Part shown: in pieces, positions 16,621 through 63,805 of the stretch
Layout: each line of letters starts with the position of its first letter
Position numbering within the stretch: position 1 is the first letter of the stretch
NCBI GenBank assembly: GCA_046538485.1
Contig: JBKHIT010000003.1
Span: 107,871-171,870, forward strand
Source: Candidatus Brocadiia bacterium
GTDB lineage: Bacteria > Planctomycetota > Brocadiia > SM23-32
Reading direction: 5' to 3'
DNA length: 64,000 nucleotides
The notes under the pieces: generated by a model
Told to the model about the DNA's origin: nothing
The model's database searches: none
Seen by the model: only the letters and a program-made list of their open reading frames with translations
Program-made: the position numbers and the translations under genes

Positions 16621-18096
16621 TCAATATTCTTTTCGCATTCGAGATGACGGAATATTCAGGTTCTTCCGGTATTTGGAGATAGTACGGCGAGCGATATCAA
16701 TGCCTTCTTCGTTCAGTTTATCCGCGATGTCCTGGTCGCTGAGGGGATTGCTCTTATCTTCGTTTTCAACAATATTGAGGAGTTTTTTCTTGACGACTTC
16801 CCACGACTCCATTTCTCCATTATCTTTCTCTACTCCTCCTGTAAAGAAATGCTTGAGAGAATAGATTCCCTGGGGAGTTTGCGCATATTTATCGGAAATT
16901 GCCCGGCTGACGGTTGAAACATGGACGCCCACGCGGTCTGCGACTTCCTGCATTTTCAGCGGTTTCAGGTGCATTTCTCCTTTTTCAAAGAATTCTTTCT
17001 GAGCATTAACGATATCCTCAGTCACATTTTGAACGGTGGCTCGACGTTGCTCAATAGCAGAGATCAATCCTTGGGCGCTTTGAAGCTTTTTCTTCAGATA
17101 CTCACGCGTCTTTTCATCGAGATCTTTTTGGCGCAGCCTGCGGGCGTAGTATGCGCAGATGCTCAGCGATGGAAGCCAGCTATCTTCCTGGATTACTTCG
17201 AATTTCCCATCTCGTTCAACGATGCGAATTTCAGGTGTGACGTGGGGGGTAATGGGTTTTTGGAAGAGGGATCCTGGAATGGGGTTTAGTTTACTGATAG
17301 ATTCAACAGCTTCTTTCAGCTTTTCAATGGAGCAGCCGACAGCTCGGGCAACCTTAGGATAGCGATTTTGGAGGATGTCGTCGAAATGATCGGTGATGAT
17401 TTTTTTCAGAAGGTCATAATTCGGATCTCTCTTATCCAGTTGCAACAGCAGGCATTCTTCCGTATTACGGGCGGCAACGCCGGGTGGCTCAAAGCTCTGC
17501 ACCAGTTTGAGTGCATCCTCGGCCTGCTCGAGCGTAACGTTATTATCCATCGACGCCACAATCTCTTCCAGAGGATGTGCGAGATAACCTCTGTCGTCGA
17601 GGTTGGCAACGATATTTTCGCCGATCGCGCGCATATCTTCGTCAAGGTCATGGTATGCCAGCTGGCTGTTGAGATGATCTTCGAGAGACGGGTCCGGGGC
17701 AGGGGAGTTTTCGAATGCTTCCTGTTTATCGCCTTTGGTATTGGGCGAGTAGCTCCCTGATGAGGTTGCGGAGGCTGAACGTTCGTAATATGAGGCCAAA
17801 TCGTCAAAACGATCAAAATCGTCGGCTTGCTCTTCTTCGTTGGCGCTGACCTCGTCGAGCTTTTCTTCCTCTGCTGGCTCTTCGACCTCTGAGTTTTCGA
17901 GGGATTTTGTTTTTGCATCCTCTTCTTTATCTTCAGAGATGGTTTGCTCCAACATGGGGTTTTCCTGCAGTTCTTCATCGATTCGGTGTTTCAACTCAAT
18001 CAGGGGCAACTGCAGTATTTCTATCGACTGGATTACCTGTGGAGCCAGCCGCATACGCATTTCCTGTCGCGCCTGCAGGCTGGCTTCCATTCTCAT
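16621..18096 (-). CDS. rpoN: RNA polymerase sigma-54 factor
   Basis: QSIEILQLP region I, NLDDRGYL, LKPLKMQEVA...HVSTVSRA, RpoN box ARRTISKYR. Confidence 0.97.
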   Translation of the reverse strand: MRMEASLQARQEMRMRLAPQVIQSIEILQLPLIELKHRIDEELQENPMLEQTISEDKEEDAKTKSLENSEVEEPAEEEKLDEVSANEEEQADDFDRFDDLASYYERSASATSSGSYSPNTKGDKQEAFENSPAPDPSLEDHLNSQLAYHDLDEDMRAIGENIVANLDDRGYLAHPLEEIVASMDNNVTLEQAEDALKLVQSFEPPGVAARNTEECLLLQLDKRDPNYDLLKKIITDHFDDILQNRYPKVARAVGCSIEKLKEAVESISKLNPIPGSLFQKPITPHVTPEIRIVERDGKFEVIQEDSWLPSLSICAYYARRLRQKDLDEKTREYLKKKLQSAQGLISAIEQRRATVQNVTEDIVNAQKEFFEKGEMHLKPLKMQEVADRVGVHVSTVSRAISDKYAQTPQGIYSLKHFFTGGVEKDNGEMESWEVVKKKLLNIVENEDKSNPLSDQDIADKLNEEGIDIARRTISKYRKNLNIPSSRMRKEY

Positions 18097-54299: not shown

Positions 54300-56648
54300 A
54301 TGTCTTCCCAGTCGACAGATGAAATACAGCTTAGCGGGCCAGAAAAAAAGTCGCCATTTCTTGTCGCGTTGAGGGGGAAGTCGTATTCGGCTTCGCGGTA
54401 TTGGGTTTTGCTGTCCGCCGTCGTTGCCTCCCTGTTGATTGTGCTGCCGGGTTGTACCTTTCTTGAAAAACAGTCAAAATTACCAGAAGTCGCGGAGCAA
54501 GAGCTGGTGATTACATGCATTGGCGACCCGCAATTCGTACCCGAGGGAGAGACCAAAGATTTCCGTTTTGTGGAGACGATGTCCCGTCTGGTGGACCAAA
54601 TCAATACAAAGATGCCGCGTTGCTCGTTTGTTGTACCTCTGGGCGATCTGGTGTGGCTCCGCTCCGAGCACCGTTACCCACATCCTGAACTCCGCAAAAA
54701 GGAAATTGACATTTATCACCGGGTCTTGAGCACGAAAATCGCCCCGCCAGTCTATACCATCCCCGGAGATCATGATCGTTTCAATTATCCGAAACAAATT
54801 AACGACCGGGCCGGCAACTATGCGATCATTAAGGACAATATTCTGTTTATAATGACGGGGATGAAGATCAAACTGACTCCGCAGAATGAACGTTACTGGA
54901 TCCGTTACCTTCTTCAGAAATATTCTGGTATGACGACGGTCATCTTTCGTCACCAGGGCATTTATAAAACCACGAAAGGCACGGACGGTAGAGGGTATCG
55001 TCACCAGACCGATTCCTCATGGTGGAGGGAACTGTTCGATAATAATCCACAGATCAAGCTGTACATTCATGGACACAACCACCAGGACAGTATTGTTGAG
55101 CAGGGGAATGTTACTTTTGTACAGTCAGGCGGGAGTTTTACAAAAAAGGCCATCCAGGTTTCGTTCCGGGAAAACGGATTCTTGGTGCGCCGTTGGGATA
55201 TTCCAAAAGGTCGGTTTGAAAAACGTTACTCTCGCCGCGTTGAAACTTCATATGATCCGGAAGCTACAAACTACTATCTGTATGGAGAACGAATTACTAA
55301 CGGAGAGGTGCCATCTGCCTGGCTGGGTGGGAAAGATTTTGTAAGCCGCAATTGCCTTTCGGATAAATCAGAAGTTGCTCTGGTTGGATTGGAAGAAGAG
55401 GCTCTACATCTGTGCAACGCCGACGGCAGATATTGGACCAAGGGTGAAGGAAAAGCTCCATGGGAACAGGTGATCTGGTTGCCTGCTGCCGGTGACTGGA
55501 AGAGCGCGGGACTCGTCCGATGGGAGAAAGTGGAGAAACCCTATACAGGCCTTCGGGTTGTGCGTGAGGCCGGACCGCCGTTCGACCAAATGTTGCTCTC
55601 GGGTAGTTCTAATAAGCAAACGTATGAGCTGTGGCGATTCTTCACGGCAGGACGGGGTGATGTGAATAAGCACTGTCGTTTTCCCCGGATTGTACCGGCG
55701 AATGTATACAATTTTGACGTGAGGATGAAAGCTGGCAGTGGCACCGCACCGGGCCGGATACGATTAATGGTTTCGGGTACGAGAACCAGCAAAGGATGGT
55801 GGTCTGAAGAAAAAGTGGTAGAGTTGAGCAAATCGTGGAAAACGTACCGCCTCCAGTTCCACCCGCCTGAAGATGCCGGAGGGCGCTTCAAATACTTCGT
55901 AATGCTCGACCGCTCGACACCCGAGGGCCACGTCGAAATTGATATCGATAGCTATGATGTTTATGTGGACCACCAGGGTAATCGAACAACCGACTTTTCA
56001 GTTGTCCTCGGAGGAAAAGAATACCGAGCTGACGGGACCCTGGGATTTTTTGAAGAAAAAGTTTTTGAACTCCCCCGGGATCACGGGACGTTGGAAAAAG
56101 TCAGCATCGGCGGTTTGAAGACGGGGATGTTTGTTATGAAACACAATGCCCCTGAAATCGATTTCCGTCACGGACGGGTCAGGCATACTTCGGGAAACAG
56201 TTTCCGTGAGCTCAAGCAGGTGACCCCGCAGAGCTCTCAGGCATTAATTACCCCTTTCTTTAATCGTCGGGAACTTTTGTGGGTTGAAGGGCGTTCCACC
56301 ACCGTCATGCCGGGTGCCAGAGGCCAGTTTGTCGCACACAAGCCGCAGAATAACTGGGAGGGAAGGTATATCTTCCTTCCGCTTACGGTATTGCCCGCGC
56401 GTGAAGCAGTGCGTGTTACACCTCTACGCGTTGAACAAAAACCGATGCTGCTGCAATTCCGGGTCGTTTCCGATAAGCAACAAAGCGTCCGTTTTGTTGT
56501 CAGTGGCATCAAATCGCCGGACCGTTACAGCGTCAGGGTCGATGGCGAAGAAATCGAAGAAGTGGATTTTAGCCCTGAGGGACAAATTAGTTTCAGTGGG
56601 CCAAGCGGAATGATGCCGCGAGTATATACCGTACGGGCTCAGTGGTAG
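54300..56648 (+). CDS. Putative lipoprotein with a calcineurin-like metallophosphoesterase domain and beta-rich C-terminal domains
   Basis: Hydrophobic stretch ending in LPGC lipobox; GDPQ, LGDL, PGDHD, FRHQ, IHGHNH motifs. Confidence 0.7.
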   Translation: MSSQSTDEIQLSGPEKKSPFLVALRGKSYSASRYWVLLSAVVASLLIVLPGCTFLEKQSKLPEVAEQELVITCIGDPQFVPEGETKDFRFVETMSRLVDQINTKMPRCSFVVPLGDLVWLRSEHRYPHPELRKKEIDIYHRVLSTKIAPPVYTIPGDHDRFNYPKQINDRAGNYAIIKDNILFIMTGMKIKLTPQNERYWIRYLLQKYSGMTTVIFRHQGIYKTTKGTDGRGYRHQTDSSWWRELFDNNPQIKLYIHGHNHQDSIVEQGNVTFVQSGGSFTKKAIQVSFRENGFLVRRWDIPKGRFEKRYSRRVETSYDPEATNYYLYGERITNGEVPSAWLGGKDFVSRNCLSDKSEVALVGLEEEALHLCNADGRYWTKGEGKAPWEQVIWLPAAGDWKSAGLVRWEKVEKPYTGLRVVREAGPPFDQMLLSGSSNKQTYELWRFFTAGRGDVNKHCRFPRIVPANVYNFDVRMKAGSGTAPGRIRLMVSGTRTSKGWWSEEKVVELSKSWKTYRLQFHPPEDAGGRFKYFVMLDRSTPEGHVEIDIDSYDVYVDHQGNRTTDFSVVLGGKEYRADGTLGFFEEKVFELPRDHGTLEKVSIGGLKTGMFVMKHNAPEIDFRHGRVRHTSGNSFRELKQVTPQSSQALITPFFNRRELLWVEGRSTTVMPGARGQFVAHKPQNNWEGRYIFLPLTVLPAREAVRVTPLRVEQKPMLLQFRVVSDKQQSVRFVVSGIKSPDRYSVRVDGEEIEEVDFSPEGQISFSGPSGMMPRVYTVRAQW

Positions 56649-57463: not shown

Positions 57464-57497
57464 AATCTCCGACTTTCTGCCGGAGATTTTTCTTTTT
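57464..57497 (+). terminator. Rho-independent terminator
   Basis: AATCTCCG-9 nt-CGGAGATT followed by TTTCTTTTT. Confidence 0.6.
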
Positions 57498-59056
57498 CAT
57501 CCCTCACTCAGGTAGGATTTGAGTGTGTTAACGGCTATCCCGAGCGCTTCAGCCGCGCGTGTTTTGTTCCCTTCGTGCAAATCCAGCGCACGGTGTGCAT
57601 ATTCATTCCTTATCTCGCGTATGGGGCGAATTTGCTCGACCGATGAAGGTCTGAAAGTTGTATGTGAGTCACTACTCTCAATACGGGGAAGATTGACCTC
57701 CTGCTGAAGTGCTTCCGTTAAAGATATGTCAAGATAAATCCAGCGTTTCAGGATCTTGATCAGCTGGCGAACATTTCCCGGCCAATCGTAATCCATCAAA
57801 AGGCTTTTTTCTTCGGGCGACAACGCAGCCTGCTTGCCTTCGAGATTTTCGAGGGCATGATCTGCAATGACCGGTATATCTTCAGCATGTTCACGTAAAG
57901 GCGGAACGTGGATGCGAAGCGTGTCAAGCCGATGATAGAGATCCGCTCGGAAATTATTTCTCCGGATGAGCTCGGCAAGGTCCCGGTTGGTGGCCGCAAC
58001 GACCCGGACATCGACTTTTTGCTGAGAACGATCGGCGCCTTCGGGAGTTACACGGCCGTCTTCCAGAACGCGCAGAAGTTTGGTCTGTACCTCCAGCGGG
58101 AGTTCGCCAATTTCGTCCAGGAATAATGTGCCAGAATCCGACGCCACGAATGCGCCTTCACGATCATTCAAAGCGCCCGTGAATGCTCCCTTCATATGAC
58201 CGAAAAGCACGGAGTTGGCCAGACCAACGTTTCCGGTAAAAGTAGCACAGTTTACAGGAATCATGGGGCCCATGCTGCGTTCACTCCCTTCATGCACAAG
58301 GTGGGCGACGAATTCTTTTCCAACTCCCGATTCGCCCGTAATAAGAACATGTTCGTCGGTTCTTGCAGATTGCTTAATACGCCTGCGCAGTTTTCGCATC
58401 GCCTTGGAACGGCCTTTCAGAACGTGTTTCATCCCGTGCCGACGGAAGACCGCGACCAAATGCTCATCGTGCGTATCCCATTGTCCCGCCGCAAGCTTTC
58501 GTATGGCCTTTAGATATGCCTGTGTATCCTGGTATTTGAACCGCTGGCCGATGGACGCTTCGATGAAATCCATCCAAAAAGACTGTGTTTCGTCCGGGGA
58601 GTCAGAGGAAAAGGAGCGGATGATGTTCTGATCGTGAACGGCCAGACTGGCCAGCCGCCTGGCACGGGGATCTTCACAGATATCCATGAACCTCTGGACG
58701 GCTTCGGTATTCGTTCTACATTCCAGAAAAACAGGTCGGCAGATGTTTTCAAACTGATCATGCATCGGTTGCAGATAACCGCGTCCACAATACCAACGAA
58801 TTTCCACTCCTTTTTCGAGCAGGCGGTTAGCAGGCGCCGCGAGCTCCTCCCATGGACACCATACGCCAACTCCGCAGACGTGAAGTTGACTGGGGGGCAG
58901 GGGAACGTTGGCCAGAGCGGCGAATTGTTCGCCGACCCTGGCTGCACTTGTGACATAAATTTCCGCCTCAGGATAGCGGAGCAGCAAACTGGCTGCTGCA
59001 CAGGCTCCGTCGAGACCGTTGTAAGTGATTAAGGCAACATTATCTGAAGGGGGCAT
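57497..59056 (-). CDS. Sigma54-dependent enhancer-binding activator with an unusual DHH-like N-terminal domain
   Basis: GESGVGKE (Walker A), [14 protein letters not shown] (Walker B), [26 protein letters not shown], Fis [24 protein letters not shown]. Confidence 0.92.
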
Positions 59057-59116
59057 GAACCCTGTCTCCTTTCGATTTTCGCGATGCTTCTAATGATACA
59101 TGCAGGGGAAGGACAT

Positions 59117-59150
59117 ATCAAATAATGATCATGGGTTATTATAATTTGAT
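59117..59150. promoter_or_regulatory. Candidate enhancer (UAS) inverted repeat for the adjacent activator
   Basis: ATCAAAT (59117-59123) / ATTTGAT (59144-59150), about 150 bp upstream of the predicted sigma54 start. Confidence 0.45.
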
Positions 59151-59260
59151 GGGCATCAATGCTGCTTTCCCTATAAGCGAAAGTCGGTAATTTCTCCGCA
59201 GTTTCGTAAGACCTTTATATATAAGACGTTACAGCCCGCTACTATTTTAATGTATAGCTA

Positions 59261-59276
59261 TGGTACGCGAATTGCG
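59261..59276 (+). promoter_or_regulatory. Sigma54 (-24/-12) promoter
   Basis: TGGTACGCGAATTGCG matches TGGCAC-N5-TTGC with correct GG-N10-GC spacing; divergent from a GAFTGA activator. Confidence 0.8.
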
Positions 59277-59373
59277 AATTATCAGGTCGAATGGAACAAC
59301 GGTTTATAGATTTAACAGTAAGGCTTGAGCAATGAAGCAGTTCACGGTTTACGCCCGATGTGGTGAAAACAAC

Positions 59374-59579
59374 GAATTTGGTCCCGCTTACTCGGTAACG
59401 TTTACGGCAGGTCCGGTAATCACTTGTGCTCTGGAACCGGAGTGGGATGCGCGAGCGCGACGGATGGAGCGGGCACTCAACGGCGGCGGACAGGCAGATG
59501 ACCACGCCGTCGCGCCTTCGCCATCCCGGTACCGGCAAGTGGGGAATGCGGACCGGGGACAGCGAGTCGTGCTGGATTC
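59374..59579 (+). ncRNA. Candidate sigma54-driven rod-shaped structured RNA (overlaps an 88-aa ORF at 59332-59598)
   Basis: Eight nested stems read by eye (listed in findings); G-U pairs in the outer stem favour the + strand. Confidence 0.5.
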
Positions 59580-59758
59580 TCCGAAAGAAGGGAGGTGAAA
59601 AATTGTCCCGGGGAATGATGTTATGGAGCGGTGTACGTTTTGTCGCCTCGGTTCGTTTGCCGTTCTAATACCCCAAAAGAGTGGTTTTGTCGCGACTTCC
59701 CGGGTGAAGGGCAGATATTCGGTTATATCCGAAGGTGAAGAGACTCTGGTTGCCCTTC

Positions 59759-60667
59759 TCAGGACGTTATCCAGGATGCAGATTCGGGCAACAAACTCGC
59801 ACCGATGCTGAGGATGCCGGCTATCAGGTAAGCGCTACGGTAACGTTCTCGGAAAACGGTGACCGTGTGGGAGGACGAGGCTTTTTGCCGGGCTTGCACC
59901 CAAAAAATGCCGTAGAACCCCGCGGCGACGGCAAGAGGGAGGAAAGGAAGAGGGTTGATATGGCCGAGATGGGCTGCCAGGGCAATTGTGACGAGTGATA
60001 GGGCAATAGCGGCAACGCTGGCATCCAGAGCATGCCGCGGACAGGTCCTCGTGGACAGCGTGGAATGTCCGGCGGCTTTGTCGGCCGCGATATCAGCTGC
60101 CTGGTGAGTGAAGTGGCCAGCCAGAATGATCGCGCCGCCGAAAGTTGCCAGCAGAAGTTCCGCAGCCAGGGCGGCTCCCGCCGCACGGGCGCCAAGGCTC
60201 ACAAGAAGAAATCCGCCGCTGAAGTTACAGATATTCGACCATGGATAGCGTTTTTTTAAACGAAATGGCGGGACAGCGTATGCGGACCAGACGGCGGCCA
60301 GCAGGATAAATCGAAAGGGACAGGGCGTCGCAAACGCAAGTGCAGTGCCGACGAAAATGAGCGGGATAACCATTGCAAGCATATGCGAAGTCTGGATTGA
60401 GCCGCGGCTGACAGGAGTCTCCCGCAACGGGGAAGCCCGATCCATGGCGGCATCGGTGAGGTCGTTCAGAGCGGCAAGCCCGCTGCCAAGGAGGGCACAT
60501 GCGGCGCCAAGACGTAGCAGAACAAAAATGTAGGATTGTTCGAACGTTTTTGTCCCAGCGACCACACAGAAAGCCCATACGCAAAGCGCAGACATCCTCG
60601 CGACTTCATCGGGTCGAAGTGACACAAGAAAAGCGCGGAAATTATTCCTGTCGGCTTTGTTCAACAC
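59759..60667 (-). CDS. UbiA-family prenyltransferase
   Basis: NDLTDAAMDR first Asp-rich motif, YAVPPFRLK, QAADIAADKAAG second motif; multiple TM helices. Confidence 0.8.
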   Translation of the reverse strand: MLNKADRNNFRAFLVSLRPDEVARMSALCVWAFCVVAGTKTFEQSYIFVLLRLGAACALLGSGLAALNDLTDAAMDRASPLRETPVSRGSIQTSHMLAMVIPLIFVGTALAFATPCPFRFILLAAVWSAYAVPPFRLKKRYPWSNICNFSGGFLLVSLGARAAGAALAAELLLATFGGAIILAGHFTHQAADIAADKAAGHSTLSTRTCPRHALDASVAAIALSLVTIALAAHLGHINPLPFLPLAVAAGFYGIFWVQARQKASSSHTVTVFRERYRSAYLIAGILSIGASLLPESASWITS

Positions 60668-62477
60668 TTGTTACCTCTACGATGGGAGTGGCGAAACAAC
60701 TGGTGCCGACGAGTTGGCCTCGAATCCTGACCGGTTGCCCGGCTTGCGGCGGAGCACTGTTTTTCAGGGCCCCGGTTATCCGAATAAGACCTTCGCCAAA
60801 ACGGTTGAGTTTGCTGTCCCGGATCATGAGCCAGGCACTCCACCAGTTTTCCTCTCGGCTGCAGGGTATATCGCCCAGTTCTATGCCTGGCTCGGTTCGC
60901 CAGCCCTCCGCAGGGTAGTGGGCTATCCCTGCCCAGTCAATCTCCGTATCTTTCCACTGCGCTAAACTGCCTTTGTCGCGGGCTTGCCACAAGCGAACAT
61001 CGTCGTACGATATTCCAGAAGAGGGATTACTATCGGGACGAGGCAGTGGTTCGAACCGCGCCGAGCGAACCAACACCAGCGCGGTGAGACCGGTGGCGAC
61101 CAGAAAAACAATGAGTATGCCTCGGAAGATGCTCTTCTTATCCGGGGGCGGCTCGGGTTTTTTGAAGGAATCCTCGCCGAGGATCAACGCACTTATCCAG
61201 GTGATCATGATGGCGATCAGGATAGGGGCAATGATAAGTCGGTGGTGGACGAGCGGACTGGCCACGAGGTGGGCAGCTGTGTAGGCGGCAACGGGCCAGA
61301 AAAGCACCTTCCACCTGGTCCACCACCTGGCGGGCATGCCCGGGAGCTGCTTTCGAAAGATGCCCCAGAATGCAGTAACAGCCATCGTGACGTAAATCAG
61401 ACCTTCGAAATCGAGTAAGGGAAACCGGAGCGGTTTGTTTCCCACAAAAGCGACGTAAGCCCGGGGTTTGTAGAACCTGCTCGGCCAACGGGACACTTCG
61501 AACCATTTCACCAGACGCCATATCCCGCTCGCGAGGGCCGTGAAGGGTCGTTTGGAAAACTCTTTTCGGGCTCTTTTTAGGCCCTCAGCGTACATCTTGC
61601 GCTCGGTGGGTATCCCCGATTGAAACAGGGCGTCCTGAACTGGTTTTGCTCTCAGGTTGGGATCACCGGTTCCGAAAACGTAGAAATGCCATGCCGGGGC
61701 GGTGGTGATCAAAACGGGTTTACCGACGAGGCGGGACGACCGGACGATCCACGGGGTTACAACGAAGAGAGTCGGGAGTGCGAACAGGCAGGCGCGACGT
61801 ATTTTACCGTGCCATTTTCCCCCATTGGCGATGGGTATCACCGCGGCGATGATGCTTGCGAGGAAAGACGGGCGGATCAGCGCGCAGAGACCACCCGTGA
61901 TTCCCACGATGGCGCTACGAATCGGTGAGCTGGGCAGCCAGGCCAGGAACAGCAGAAAACTGTTGAGGAGAACTGTGGAAAGAACGGGATCGTGGTGAAA
62001 ATGGATCAGGGCGATGTTGGGTGCGTGCAGAGCCATGAATCCCGCTACGAGCAGGCCCAGTCGTGGCGCAAAGCCGACCTTTCTCACAATCAGGTAGATG
62101 AGGAGGATGTTAAAACTGCTCAGGAGGGCCTGGATAAGGCGTACGGTCGTAACGTTCCGTCCCAGGAGGGAATAAACACCGGCCAGGAATGCGGGATAGC
62201 CCGGCGGACGATGTGCCTGGCCGATGAAGCCGGCCGGGCATGAATGAAAAGAGCCGGATCTCAGCAGATTGCACGCGAACATATCGTAATCGACTTCATC
62301 CCAATAGACTTTTGTGCCGTAGGGGAGCGCCGGCGGGTAGCCTGCGATCGATATGCAACGCACAGCGAATCCGATTGCCCATATGAGGAAGAGCCAGCGT
62401 AGCGGCTGTCTTACGCGCCATTTTCTGAACCAGACAAGTGGATTCAAACTCTGCTCCCGGTAAGGAAAATTCTCCAT
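60642..62477 (-). CDS. GT-C (ArnT/PMT-like) integral membrane glycosyltransferase
   Basis: WDEVDY acidic motif after TM1, HRPPGYPAFLA, ALIRP, PWIVR; about 11-12 hydrophobic segments and a soluble C-terminal domain. Confidence 0.7.
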   Translation of the reverse strand: MENFPYREQSLNPLVWFRKWRVRQPLRWLFLIWAIGFAVRCISIAGYPPALPYGTKVYWDEVDYDMFACNLLRSGSFHSCPAGFIGQAHRPPGYPAFLAGVYSLLGRNVTTVRLIQALLSSFNILLIYLIVRKVGFAPRLGLLVAGFMALHAPNIALIHFHHDPVLSTVLLNSFLLFLAWLPSSPIRSAIVGITGGLCALIRPSFLASIIAAVIPIANGGKWHGKIRRACLFALPTLFVVTPWIVRSSRLVGKPVLITTAPAWHFYVFGTGDPNLRAKPVQDALFQSGIPTERKMYAEGLKRARKEFSKRPFTALASGIWRLVKWFEVSRWPSRFYKPRAYVAFVGNKPLRFPLLDFEGLIYVTMAVTAFWGIFRKQLPGMPARWWTRWKVLFWPVAAYTAAHLVASPLVHHRLIIAPILIAIMITWISALILGEDSFKKPEPPPDKKSIFRGILIVFLVATGLTALVLVRSARFEPLPRPDSNPSSGISYDDVRLWQARDKGSLAQWKDTEIDWAGIAHYPAEGWRTEPGIELGDIPCSREENWWSAWLMIRDSKLNRFGEGLIRITGALKNSAPPQAGQPVRIRGQLVGTSCFATPIVEVTSVEQSRQE

Positions 62478-63805
62478 GCGTTTTGCACGAGAAATCCCCA
62501 GTCCTGGGGTTCAGTTACCAACGCTGAGGCGATATCGAGAAGATGCTGGGGGTTCGTATAGAATCGGCGAAATGCTTCACGTCGTTTCGCGCGCAGCTGA
62601 TTCGATGTCCAATGAGGCGAGCTCATGTACGGTCCTGCCTCGTCATAGGTCGAGAGTTCATTGGGCGGGCGGAGTAGCTGTCCGTGTTCCCGTGCAAGTT
62701 CGTAGAGTCTTGTCCCGGGGAACGGAGTTGCTATAAAAAAATGAGCGTGGTGTGCCGGGAGACTGCACGCCATGCGGATTGTCGCATTCAAGTCGTCAAG
62801 GGTCTCGAACGGAAGCCCCATCATAAAATAAAGCGCTACGCGGACATTTCTTTCGCGCAGTGCTTCAACAGTTCCAAGCACCACGGACAGATCGATTTTT
62901 TTGCCCAGTTTGTCGACCACTTTTTGGCTTCCACTTTCCACGGACACACTGGCGGCATAAAGACCTGCTTTCACAAGCATGTCGAGCATCTCTTCTTCGC
63001 GGACGTCGGCGCGAATTCCATTTGGAAGGGCGAAACGCATCTTTTTCTGCAGGTTTCGCTCCAGAATTTCTTCGCAGAGCTGACATACTCTATCCGTATC
63101 GTAGGTGAAATGGTCGTCCCAGAAGTGGAACTCGCGAATCCCCCAGCGGTCAACGGCATTTTCCATTTCATCTACCACGTCGGTGATGGATCGGCGTCGG
63201 ACCTTATAGCCATGAAGAAATTTTGTGCAATTGATGCAGTTGAATGGACATCCACGGCTTGTCGTAATAGGGACAGCGGGTCTGTGCCCGGGGAAATAAT
63301 ATTTGTCCAGTTGAAAACTTTCCCAGGCCGGCCAGGGAACCGAATCAAGGTCCTGAATATGGGGGACGCGTTCTTCGCTGGCAGTGCGGAGCTTCTCCGG
63401 GCAGAACACGCCTTGTATGTTTTCAGGCGGTTCTCCGGCGGCGATCCGGCAGATCACGGGTTCTCCCTCGCCCACGACCACGGCGTCGAATCCGCATTCC
63501 AAAAGCGTACCGGGAATTGCCGATGCCTGTGGGCCACCCGCGATGAGTTTGAGTTCCGGATATAAATTTCTGATCTGTGCTATAAGTTCTGCAGTGCGGC
63601 TGACATTGGCTGCGTTGACCGTGACGCCGAGATGCCTTTCTCCTTCTTCGATAGCCTTTTTGATGGCTATCAGGGGGGAGTCCTCGATTTGGAGATCGAC
63701 GACGATAACCCGGTGCCCGGCGTCCGAGAGTGCTCCGGCAATATATCCGAGACTCAAAGAGGGGTATGTATACCAGTTATTCTCGCCCGTGTTGAGAAGA
63801 ATCAT
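62444..63805 (-). CDS. Cobalamin-binding radical SAM protein (class B type)
   Basis: PSLSLGYIAG, AGGPQAS, VVGEGE (B12-binding); TSRGCPFNCINC; DDHF, VESGSQ, PFPGTRLY. Confidence 0.9.
   Translation of the reverse strand: MILLNTGENNWYTYPSLSLGYIAGALSDAGHRVIVVDLQIEDSPLIAIKKAIEEGERHLGVTVNAANVSRTAELIAQIRNLYPELKLIAGGPQASAIPGTLLECGFDAVVVGEGEPVICRIAAGEPPENIQGVFCPEKLRTASEERVPHIQDLDSVPWPAWESFQLDKYYFPGHRPAVPITTSRGCPFNCINCTKFLHGYKVRRRSITDVVDEMENAVDRWGIREFHFWDDHFTYDTDRVCQLCEEILERNLQKKMRFALPNGIRADVREEEMLDMLVKAGLYAASVSVESGSQKVVDKLGKKIDLSVVLGTVEALRERNVRVALYFMMGLPFETLDDLNATIRMACSLPAHHAHFFIATPFPGTRLYELAREHGQLLRPPNELSTYDEAGPYMSSPHWTSNQLRAKRREAFRRFYTNPQHLLDIASALVTEPQDWGFLVQNAWRIFLTGSRV

Follow-up and report, generated by a model that had tools for sequence, protein, structure and literature searches.

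A DHH-fold sensor on a sigma-54 activator and a conserved small protein as its probable output in a Brocadiia bacterium

Activators of sigma-54-dependent transcription are classed by their sensor domains. RtcR and the RtcR-like activators consist of a Rossmann-like domain of a nucleotide-related family, an NtrC-type AAA+ domain and a helix-turn-helix (HTH). RtcR is treated by Hughes et al. 2020 (PMC7790460), and RtcR-like activators with a CARF sensor have been linked to repair and restriction systems, with ligands predicted to be made on infection or damage (Makarova et al. 2014, PMC4012209), as far as the available portions of these two papers go. In this study an activator of similar layout, with a different sensor, was analysed in a 64,000-nucleotide stretch from a Candidatus Brocadiia bacterium (assembly GCA_046538485.1, contig JBKHIT010000003.1, positions 107,871 to 171,870), which is called the window throughout. 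The activator (P0001, 519 amino acids) is encoded at 57497-59056 on the minus strand, as seen from its open reading frame (ORF), translation and Pfam matches. Its gene is divergent from a candidate sigma-54 promoter, downstream of which lies a gene for a protein of 88 amino acids (P0002; 59332-59598, plus strand), here called protein A. That this promoter has protein A as its output is very probable. We also consider it likely that the activator with its DHH-derived sensor, the promoter and protein A form one module, probably belonging to a damage or defence regulon.

The similarity to RtcR lies in the order of the domains and in the AAA+ and HTH part of the protein, which matches the PADLOC model RtcR_PspF2 (E 7.7e-95, residues 210-517) and the NCBIfam RtcR model NF038308 (265 bits, residues 208-512). 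However, the latter score is far below the cut-off of 650 bits and leaves the N-terminus uncovered, and the PADLOC models also match only from residue 202-210 or so onward. No NCBIfam equivalog reached its cut-off for the activator: the best were NorR (294 bits against 476) and RtcR, and both models start to match at residue ~185-208. The sensor is of the DHH and not of the CARF fold, and no CARF chain was among the best 50 matches in either of the structure searches described below. The outputs differ as well. Here they would be protein A and a cas operon, and in related genomes a small protein B, a GGACT enzyme, HIRAN-ARPP-1 proteins, recA and rmuC, whereas rtcBA is not among them and no rtc genes were seen in a Pfam scan of the flank of the activator in the window. 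The initial annotation, made from the sequence of the window, had proposed an RtcR-analogous module with a different sensor fold and possibly an RNA output. The analogy is a fair one in the sense that the module would work in a similar way, and the sensor is indeed of another fold, but the RNA part of the proposal did not stand.

Judged from its translation and profile matches, the activator is an intact NtrC-type sigma-54 enhancer-binding protein, in agreement with the initial annotation. The sigma-54 interaction domain (Sigma54_activat, PF00158) covers residues 214-383 (57908-58417, minus strand) with an E value of 1.2e-59, and AAA_lid_14 was also matched. Walker A (GESGVGKE), the GAFTGA loop and Walker B (LFLDEIGE) can be read in the translation, and Walker A, GAFTGA and the DE of Walker B are invariant in an alignment of 25 homologues. 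The Fis-type HTH at residues 489-512 (57521-57592, minus strand) matched HTH_8 (PF02954) with 20.4 bits, slightly below the cut-off of 22 bits, and the C-terminal HTH block is conserved among the 25 homologues. The other features expected of an NtrC-type system, i.e. an upstream enhancer, a -24/-12 promoter and an rpoN gene in the genome, were found too. The rpoN gene had been noted earlier as lying in the window, and does so at 16621-18096 (minus strand, 491 amino acids). Its Sigma54_DBD match (E 6.3e-61) lies at C84:124500-124973 of genome G000, corresponding to 16630-17103 of the window; G000 is the window's own genome, a bin with 88 % completeness and 4 % contamination, in which the window's contig is C84.

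The N-terminal sensor domain comprises residues 1-212 (58421-59056, minus strand). Its AlphaFold2 (AF2) model, based on an alignment of 13 rows, had a mean predicted local distance difference test score (pLDDT) of 93.3 and a predicted template modelling score of 0.90. When the model was compared with all structure representatives (the VIA-wide search), the top 12 matches were all DHH-fold proteins, with Z scores of 11.0-14.9 and 176-200 of the 212 residues aligned. These included 8a8k_A (Z 14.9, 176 residues, root-mean-square deviation 3.4), 7bhi_A (Z 14.3) and 6mtz_B (Z 14.2), while the next folds, von Willebrand A and periplasmic-binding, reached Z 9.4 at most and covered only residues 1-126. 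The best Foldseek match was again 6mtz_B (E 1.1e-5, template modelling score 0.63), and Foldseek gave a probability of 1.00 to its matches with RecJ, NrnA-type proteins and pAp phosphatase. The similarity to the DHH phosphoesterases (RecJ, NrnA, pAp phosphatase, Cdc45/GAN) extends over the whole 212-residue fold, the helical part included.

The catalytic motifs of the DHH phosphoesterases are DXD, D, DHH and D. In contrast to these enzymes, the sensor has no invariant histidine in residues 1-212, D16 is its only invariant acidic residue, cysteines stand at its strand ends, and it is fused to an activator whose AAA+ domain starts at residue 214, directly after the sensor, leaving no DHHA1 or DHHA2 lobe. 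Nor is there similarity at the level of sequence: the first 212 residues matched neither Pfam DHH nor any other Pfam family even at E≤10, and their alignment gave chance-level matches only (E≥0.096) against profiles of the Protein Data Bank, where it has no solved relative. The residues found invariant in the alignments are D16, G17, A18, C19, S37, C61, G62, G64, W88, C90, G91, R92, G93, Y94, L95, N116 and K174, the three cysteines in all of 25 and all of 13 aligned homologues, respectively. C19, C61 and C90 follow strands 1, 3 and 4 of the model, the secondary structure of which places these cysteines and the invariant residues D16, S37, R92 and N116 at the C-terminal ends of five strands. 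These strand-end residues (D16/C19, S37, C61, C90/R92, N116) may form one pocket. Based on the model, the pattern of invariance and the Pfam result, the sensor is assigned to the DHH fold of the RecJ/NrnA/pAp-phosphatase type without the catalytic histidines. The earlier description of a degenerate DHH sensor is right at the level of the fold, since the model and both structure searches place DHH proteins at the top. Given its fusion to a transcription activator, the domain probably serves for binding and not for catalysis. In the literature, as far as its text was available, no DHH-derived sensor was found among the described sigma-54 activator types.

Homologous loci were sought with the N-terminal-domain alignment alone, because a locus search with the whole activator returned AAA+ relatives of any family. 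Residues 1-212 retrieved 82 protein clusters, i.e. the window's own and 81 others, all of about 500-600 amino acids and of the same architecture. The source labels given among them were Planctomycetota, Brocadiaceae, Hydrogenedentota and Roseovarius pacificus (P0054), the last being a cultured organism. The distribution within the window's phylum is patchy: of 401 genomes sampled, 9 have the domain, one of which is G000. Distant activator homologues with ~31 % identity in the sensor were also seen in four complete genomes of family f41 (L094, L095, L097 and L098). Their neighbourhood is conserved but of another kind, and includes a CGGC-domain protein and an HATPase_c_2 protein and, as judged from the sequence by eye, a flavodoxin-like protein and TRAP-type transporter-like genes; no sigma-54 box was found upstream in these four loci.

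The DNA between the activator and protein A genes has the layout of a sigma-54-dependent control region. Two putative enhancer (upstream activating) sites resemble the palindrome TCAA-N3-TTGA: site 1, TCAAATAATGA, at 59118-59128, with one mismatch, and site 2, TTATAATTTGA, at 59139-59149, 21 bp from site 1 and read from the sequence. Comparison of the nine loci with the activators closest to the window's, which contain protein A (A-type loci), identified this pair of 11-bp sites as the substance of the inverted repeat previously placed at 59117-59150, which the repeat search confirmed with arms of 13 nucleotides at 59117-59129 and 59138-59150 and a complementarity of 85 %. The candidate sigma-54 promoter, TGGTACGCGAATTGCG, lies at 59261-59276 on the plus strand and was assigned by a consensus scan and by its recurrence; transcription from it would start near 59287-59288. 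The two palindromes of the nine A-type loci are spaced 20-21 bp apart and precede the -24 element by approximately 120-145 bp, the second site being the weaker one and identified by eye.

Both the divergent promoter and the conserved enhancer were looked for in homologous loci and were found there. The upstream sequence was long enough for this in 57 loci, of which 17 had at least one perfect TCAA-N3-TTGA within 450 bp upstream of the activator, compared to 0.62 expected from the density of sites elsewhere in the same loci. Of the 57, 21 had a divergent sigma-54 box at a distance of 100-420 bp before the activator, compared to an expected ~0.4 (score ≥13.5; the background was 26 matches in 1,193,648 strand-bp, or 0.007 per upstream window).

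An AT-rich element, CGTAAGACCTTTATATATAAGACGTTAC, is situated between the enhancer and the promoter at 59205-59232, and could serve as a DNA-bending site. It had been called a palindrome. The element is present, but it is a poor palindrome, with no inverted repeat reported there, and it is not conserved in the other A-type loci. A site for IHF in the element was considered and rejected: the match at 59207-59219 (minus strand, one mismatch) is one of 44 such matches in the window, where 48 would be expected by chance, and it is not conserved in the other A-type loci.

The activator gene has a putative sigma-70-like promoter of its own, TTGATA-17-TATCAT at 59093-59121 on the minus strand, which matches the consensus in 10 of 12 positions. 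Its -10 region recurs in the A-type loci as the motif CATGATAxCGCAG (TATCAT on the gene strand), and its -35 hexamer overlaps enhancer site 1. This overlap suggests that the activator may repress its own sigma-70 promoter.

The ORF of protein A has 88 codons and starts 71 nucleotides after the first base of the sigma-54 box. Protein A follows the box in nine of 60 activator loci (the window and 59 others, which are also the basis of the neighbour counts below), at a distance of 60-78 nucleotides, and the nine proteins have the N-terminal 50 residues in common. A profile search gave 18 clusters of 57-133 amino acids, one of them the window's own; those with a source name are all called hypothetical protein, none has a Pfam domain, and protein A itself matched no Pfam, PADLOC or NCBIfam family. 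The aligned homologues are 25-40 % identical to the protein of the window, and no variation was seen at Y20, V22 and W38 among 21 sequences. Differences between the genes at codon positions 1, 2 and 3 were 0.49, 0.39 and 0.61, respectively, and the ratio of non-synonymous to synonymous change (dN/dS) of the two closest pairs was approximately 0.15-0.18 (0.075/0.49 and 0.28/1.56). On the basis of these substitution patterns the gene is under purifying selection as a protein-coding gene.

A six-frame search seeded on protein A gave 17 copies, distributed over 15 of the 30 genomes of a single family labelled Brocadiaceae. The activator was within the examined locus for 11 of these copies, and 12 had a sigma-54 box 60-78 nucleotides before the start codon. 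In L200, L206 and L210 protein A has a box and no activator in the examined locus. The AF2 model consists of a three-stranded sheet and one helix (beta-beta-beta-alpha) in residues 1-50, with a pLDDT of ~90, followed by a disordered tail. The fold gave no Foldseek match at E≤0.001 and a best Z score of 4.3 in the VIA-wide search, and in the ESM Atlas only scores of 0.76 with template modelling scores below 0.5 were obtained. HicB-like/UPF0150 proteins, which are likewise small and of the beta-beta-beta-alpha type, were considered as possible relatives; no such Pfam match was obtained for the 21 members at E≤10. A 67-residue Thermus protein (2yzt_A) was matched weakly in the VIA-wide search (Z 3.1). 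Complex prediction for the sensor domain with the protein A core gave a score of 0.00, which speaks neither for nor against an interaction. Further ORFs of 72-617 amino acids follow protein A on the same strand in other loci; having no Pfam match and no likeness to each other, they were rejected as members of the module. In the window an ORF of 21 codons with a TTG start (59603-59668, plus strand) begins 7 nucleotides after a strong GGGAGGTG, within which the protein A gene has part of its stop codon. There is a hairpin at about 59624-59668 that lacks a U-tract, and no canonical terminator was found between protein A and the following UbiA gene.

At more distant loci the activator is accompanied by other genes, as seen from neighbour clustering and profile searches. 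A protein with HIRAN and ARPP-1 domains (PF08797 and PF20208) was found at 18 of the 60 loci, protein B, which has 125 amino acids and belongs to no family, at 14, and a GGACT/AIG2-like enzyme at eight, the usual order being box, B, GGACT and HIRAN/ARPP-1. Many of the related genomes are close kin, and the counts overstate independence. Compared as profiles, proteins A and B show no kinship (probability 0.2 %); in one locus (L102) A is followed by B, and a query with a single B protein did not find B in G000. In the ESM Atlas the nearest neighbours of protein B (L126:4313-4693) were unnamed clusters with a score of 0.90, whose members are partly from phages (Uroviricota), which is a lead only. 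A quick tree was made of 55 activators, leaving out four with too short a translation (L107, L122, L131 and L143) and L130, the start of which lay beyond the locus. Seven of the nine A-type activators belonged to a group of ten with a support of 87, and the remaining two formed a separate pair; the window's activator grouped with those of L099, L101 and L111 (support 98). G000 also encodes, on contig C48 (L154:6256-9907), an ARPP-1 protein of 382 amino acids without HIRAN, directly downstream of a 777-residue protein with VIT and von Willebrand A domains. There was no sigma-54 box at the start of this ARPP-1 gene, and the 14-kb region has one strong box only, which is intragenic.

ARPP-1 and HIRAN form a conserved pairing and are parts of predicted conflict systems, according to the available text of Iyer et al. 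2022 (PMC9503650). The HIRAN+ARPP-1 protein is the commonest large output gene beside this activator family. In contrast, a link to sigma-54 is absent from that paper, the available text of which does not contain the word sigma, and the window itself has no HIRAN+ARPP-1 gene.

A second probable target of the activator was found in the same genome. G000 has 380 sigma-54-like boxes (score ≥13), and only two of these have a strict tandem palindrome in the 260 bp upstream: the one in the window and one on contig C38. The tandem sites are located at -143/-122 relative to the box in the window and at -141/-121 on C38. The two control regions share the 12-mer GGACATATCAAA, and GTAAGAYCTTT is common to both at 53-55 bp before the box. 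The AT-rich core GTAAGACCTTT (59206-59216) recurs as GTAAGATCTTT before the C38 cas3 promoter, at a distance of 55 as against 53 bp. By our own rough arithmetic, with 17 tandem pairs in the whole genome and ~2 % of its length situated before a box, about 0.3 such co-occurrences would be expected by chance before the distances are matched. The box and tandem palindrome on C38 precede a complete type I-C locus (L156:475-10270) with cas3, cas5c, cas8c, cas7, cas4, cas1c, cas2 and a CRISPR array with a 32-nucleotide repeat. Orthologues of cas3 are present in four other A-type genomes, and in one of these (G403) cas3 is preceded by a box at 130 bp, and the box in turn by a perfect palindrome at a further 125 bp.

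The composite motif TCAANNNTTGA-N95-135-TGGYAY-N6-TGC was sought in 30 genomes that have the activator and was matched 17 times, in 10 of them, and not once in the reversed control. Five of the 17 are the activators' own divergent promoters, and four have short or unclear flanks. Matches in G401 precede RecA (E 9e-130), a Cas3_HD protein and protein B, those in G418 a divergent RmuC/AIG2 pair and DUF4007, and that in G423 protein B. In the divergent pair (L165, on G418:C5) one enhancer region is located between two divergent sigma-54 boxes, one leading to the RmuC-family protein and the other to a 372-residue AIG2/GGACT fusion. Looser variants of the motif add a distal HIRAN gene. Because the layout precedes B, GGACT, HIRAN/ARPP-1, recA, cas3, rmuC and DUF4007, the family most likely controls a response to nucleic-acid damage or to phages. 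This damage or defence reading of the regulon, the evidence for which consists of sequence motifs, has in our judgement about an even chance of being correct. Neither sigma-54 control of cas3 nor a sigma-54-dependent damage regulon was found in the literature, as far as its text was available.

Several observations weigh against such a regulon, or against the assignment of its parts. Nearly half of the activator loci (28 of 60) have none of A, B, GGACT and HIRAN/ARPP-1 in the flanks examined. In the window taken alone, -24/-12 matches with at most one mismatch occur at chance frequency (2 compared to 1.62 expected), the box departs twice from the TGGCACG-N4-TTGCW consensus, and both enhancer sites are imperfect, with one and two mismatches. 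The box at 59261-59276 that the initial annotation had put forward is present all the same, and its weight comes from the recurrence of the same position in homologous loci. The ungapped identity of the window and C38 regions is 0.295 over 176 nucleotides, compared to 0.257±0.033 for random low-GC fragments; the likeness of the two regions is therefore confined to the enhancer block, where the identity is 0.51 after a shift of two nucleotides, and to the short motifs. Three of the five cas3-bearing genomes have no sigma-54 box before cas3: the upstream region looks sigma-70-like in G405 and G407, and G402 has 142 bp of upstream sequence only. The looser composite variants match the controls too (6 compared to 2, and 7 compared to 2). 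The recA gene of G000 has neither box nor palindrome, LexA, the classical SOS repressor, is present in this genome (DNA-binding domain at C97:90967-91155, in a frame of 206 amino acids), and the assignment of C38 and C84 to one organism is by binning only. Finally, the three invariant cysteines of the sensor could mean redox or metal sensing instead of the sensing of a nucleotide.

The last point is the core of an alternative in which the three cysteines, in the place of the metal ligands of the DHH fold, would hold a metal or an Fe-S cluster or pair as disulfides. Redox or metal stress would then be what the activator reports, with protein A acting as a small stress protein, and repair and defence genes would make up a minority or stand behind similar motifs by coincidence. 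The complete invariance of C19, C61 and C90 and their placement after strands 1, 3 and 4 agree with this alternative, as do the CGGC-domain and, by eye, flavodoxin-like neighbours in the four complete genomes; a sigma-54 activator, OrpR, senses redox by an Fe-S cluster, according to the available part of PMC8359166. However, R92, D16, S37 and N116 do not vary either, and these residues would also suit a pocket for phosphate or a nucleotide, and the genes behind the composite motif encode mostly nucleic-acid enzymes (cas3 three times, recA, rmuC, HIRAN). We regard redox or metal sensing as unlikely.

The other alternatives concern the output, and both are less probable still. It could be that a short, structured RNA without coding function is transcribed from the promoter and that the ORFs are incidental, as was suggested when only a rod-folding segment and short ORFs had been recognised on the plus strand. 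The distance of ~470 nucleotides from the expected start to the convergent UbiA gene was stated correctly (the gene lies at 59759-60667 on the minus strand), and the minimum-energy fold does contain long helices. The segment nevertheless folds no better than shuffled sequences (z +0.68 for 59287-59700 and -0.71 for 59590-59760), and no Rfam model reached its threshold, the sole match being to the eukaryotic snoRNA model snoR60 at E 0.73. In addition, 59332-59598 is a conserved protein gene in which change falls mostly on third positions, and its homologues had already been called as proteins by public gene callers, which makes an RNA output extremely improbable. It could also be that the locus is a decayed remnant, i.e. 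that a former B-GGACT-HIRAN/ARPP-1 operon was lost and that an orphan promoter and a leftover ORF stayed behind. Distant homologues do lead such operons, L102 has A followed by B, and the only ARPP-1 gene of G000 is the one without HIRAN, located at another site and not near a sigma-54 box. But the activator is intact, and protein A is under purifying selection and is kept in half of the 30 genomes of the family, mostly with a box of its own, which does not fit the decayed remnant that the initial annotation had named as the refuting case. In G401, moreover, A is next to the activator, and B lies at a different site where a further copy of the motif precedes it; because the two are placed apart, A and B are separate members of a regulon. 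Decay is very unlikely on these grounds.

With protein A as the output and a regulon around it, the following course of events can be proposed. The activator would bind the two TCAA-N3-TTGA palindromes at 59118-59128 and 59139-59149, and its binding to site 1 would limit its own sigma-70 promoter, giving the negative autoregulation that the overlap of site 1 with the -35 hexamer suggests. The DHH-derived domain would restrain the AAA+ ring until a signal arrives. When the pocket of the sensor is occupied or modified, the ring would open the sigma-54 promoter at 59261-59276, and protein A (59332-59598) would be transcribed; the promoter of the type I-C cas operon on C38 may fire in the same way. 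The signal may be a nucleotide, an oligonucleotide or single-stranded DNA. The fold of RecJ and NrnA handles 5'-phosphorylated oligonucleotides and single-stranded DNA. A nucleotide or nucleic-acid ligand is our first guess, prompted by the recurrence of repair and defence genes and by the enzyme ancestry of the sensor, and we would give it roughly the same chance of being right as of being wrong.

Regulators of the PafBC/DriD type sense single-stranded DNA. The WYL-domain proteins PafBC and DriD act independently of LexA and are similar to the proposed system in being ligand-sensing activators which, in parallel with LexA, turn on recA together with genes for repair and for small proteins, while the protein family, the sigma factor and the sensor fold all differ from those of the activator described here, as far as the available literature describes them. 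In its most extended form, the proposal is that the activator family is an undescribed sigma-54 master switch of a damage and anti-phage regulon (type I-C cas, recA, rmuC, HIRAN/ARPP-1, DUF4007, A and B), with a dead RecJ/NrnA-like DHH domain as the sensor of single-stranded DNA, an oligonucleotide or a nucleotide, and with protein A as an effector or feedback regulator. We put this forward tentatively, as a possibility somewhat short of even.

In the window, the convergent cluster at 59759-63805 (minus strand) encodes the UbiA-family prenyltransferase, a PMT_2-like glycosyltransferase of 611 amino acids and a B12-binding radical SAM enzyme, the best matches of which were to the HpnJ, BchE and lipid radical SAM families, all below threshold. 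The cluster is possibly a lipid-modification set, and it is unlinked to the module in other loci. On the other side, 54300-56648 (plus strand) encodes a calcineurin-like metallophosphoesterase of 782 amino acids with a weak match to a carbohydrate-binding module and a faint, sub-threshold match to an anti-phage phosphoesterase model.

The present study describes a sigma-54 activator in which the sensor is new, two small proteins, also new, as its outputs, and a link to CRISPR-Cas and recombination genes that is no more than suggestive. A DHH-derived sensor would add a new type to those by which the sigma-54 activators are classed. The two enhancer sites of the form TCAA-N3-TTGA, the promoter and the two small protein families provide handles on the system, and the HIRAN/ARPP-1 proteins, which are poorly understood, are placed under an identifiable signal pathway. 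If the proposed reading is true, CRISPR-Cas, RecA and predicted conflict proteins would be governed by sigma-54 and a dead-nuclease sensor in a group of mostly uncultured bacteria that includes Planctomycetota (bins labelled Brocadiaceae among them), Hydrogenedentota, Nitrospirota and Acidobacteriota, in a regulon running parallel to the LexA, WYL-type and CARF-type regulators.

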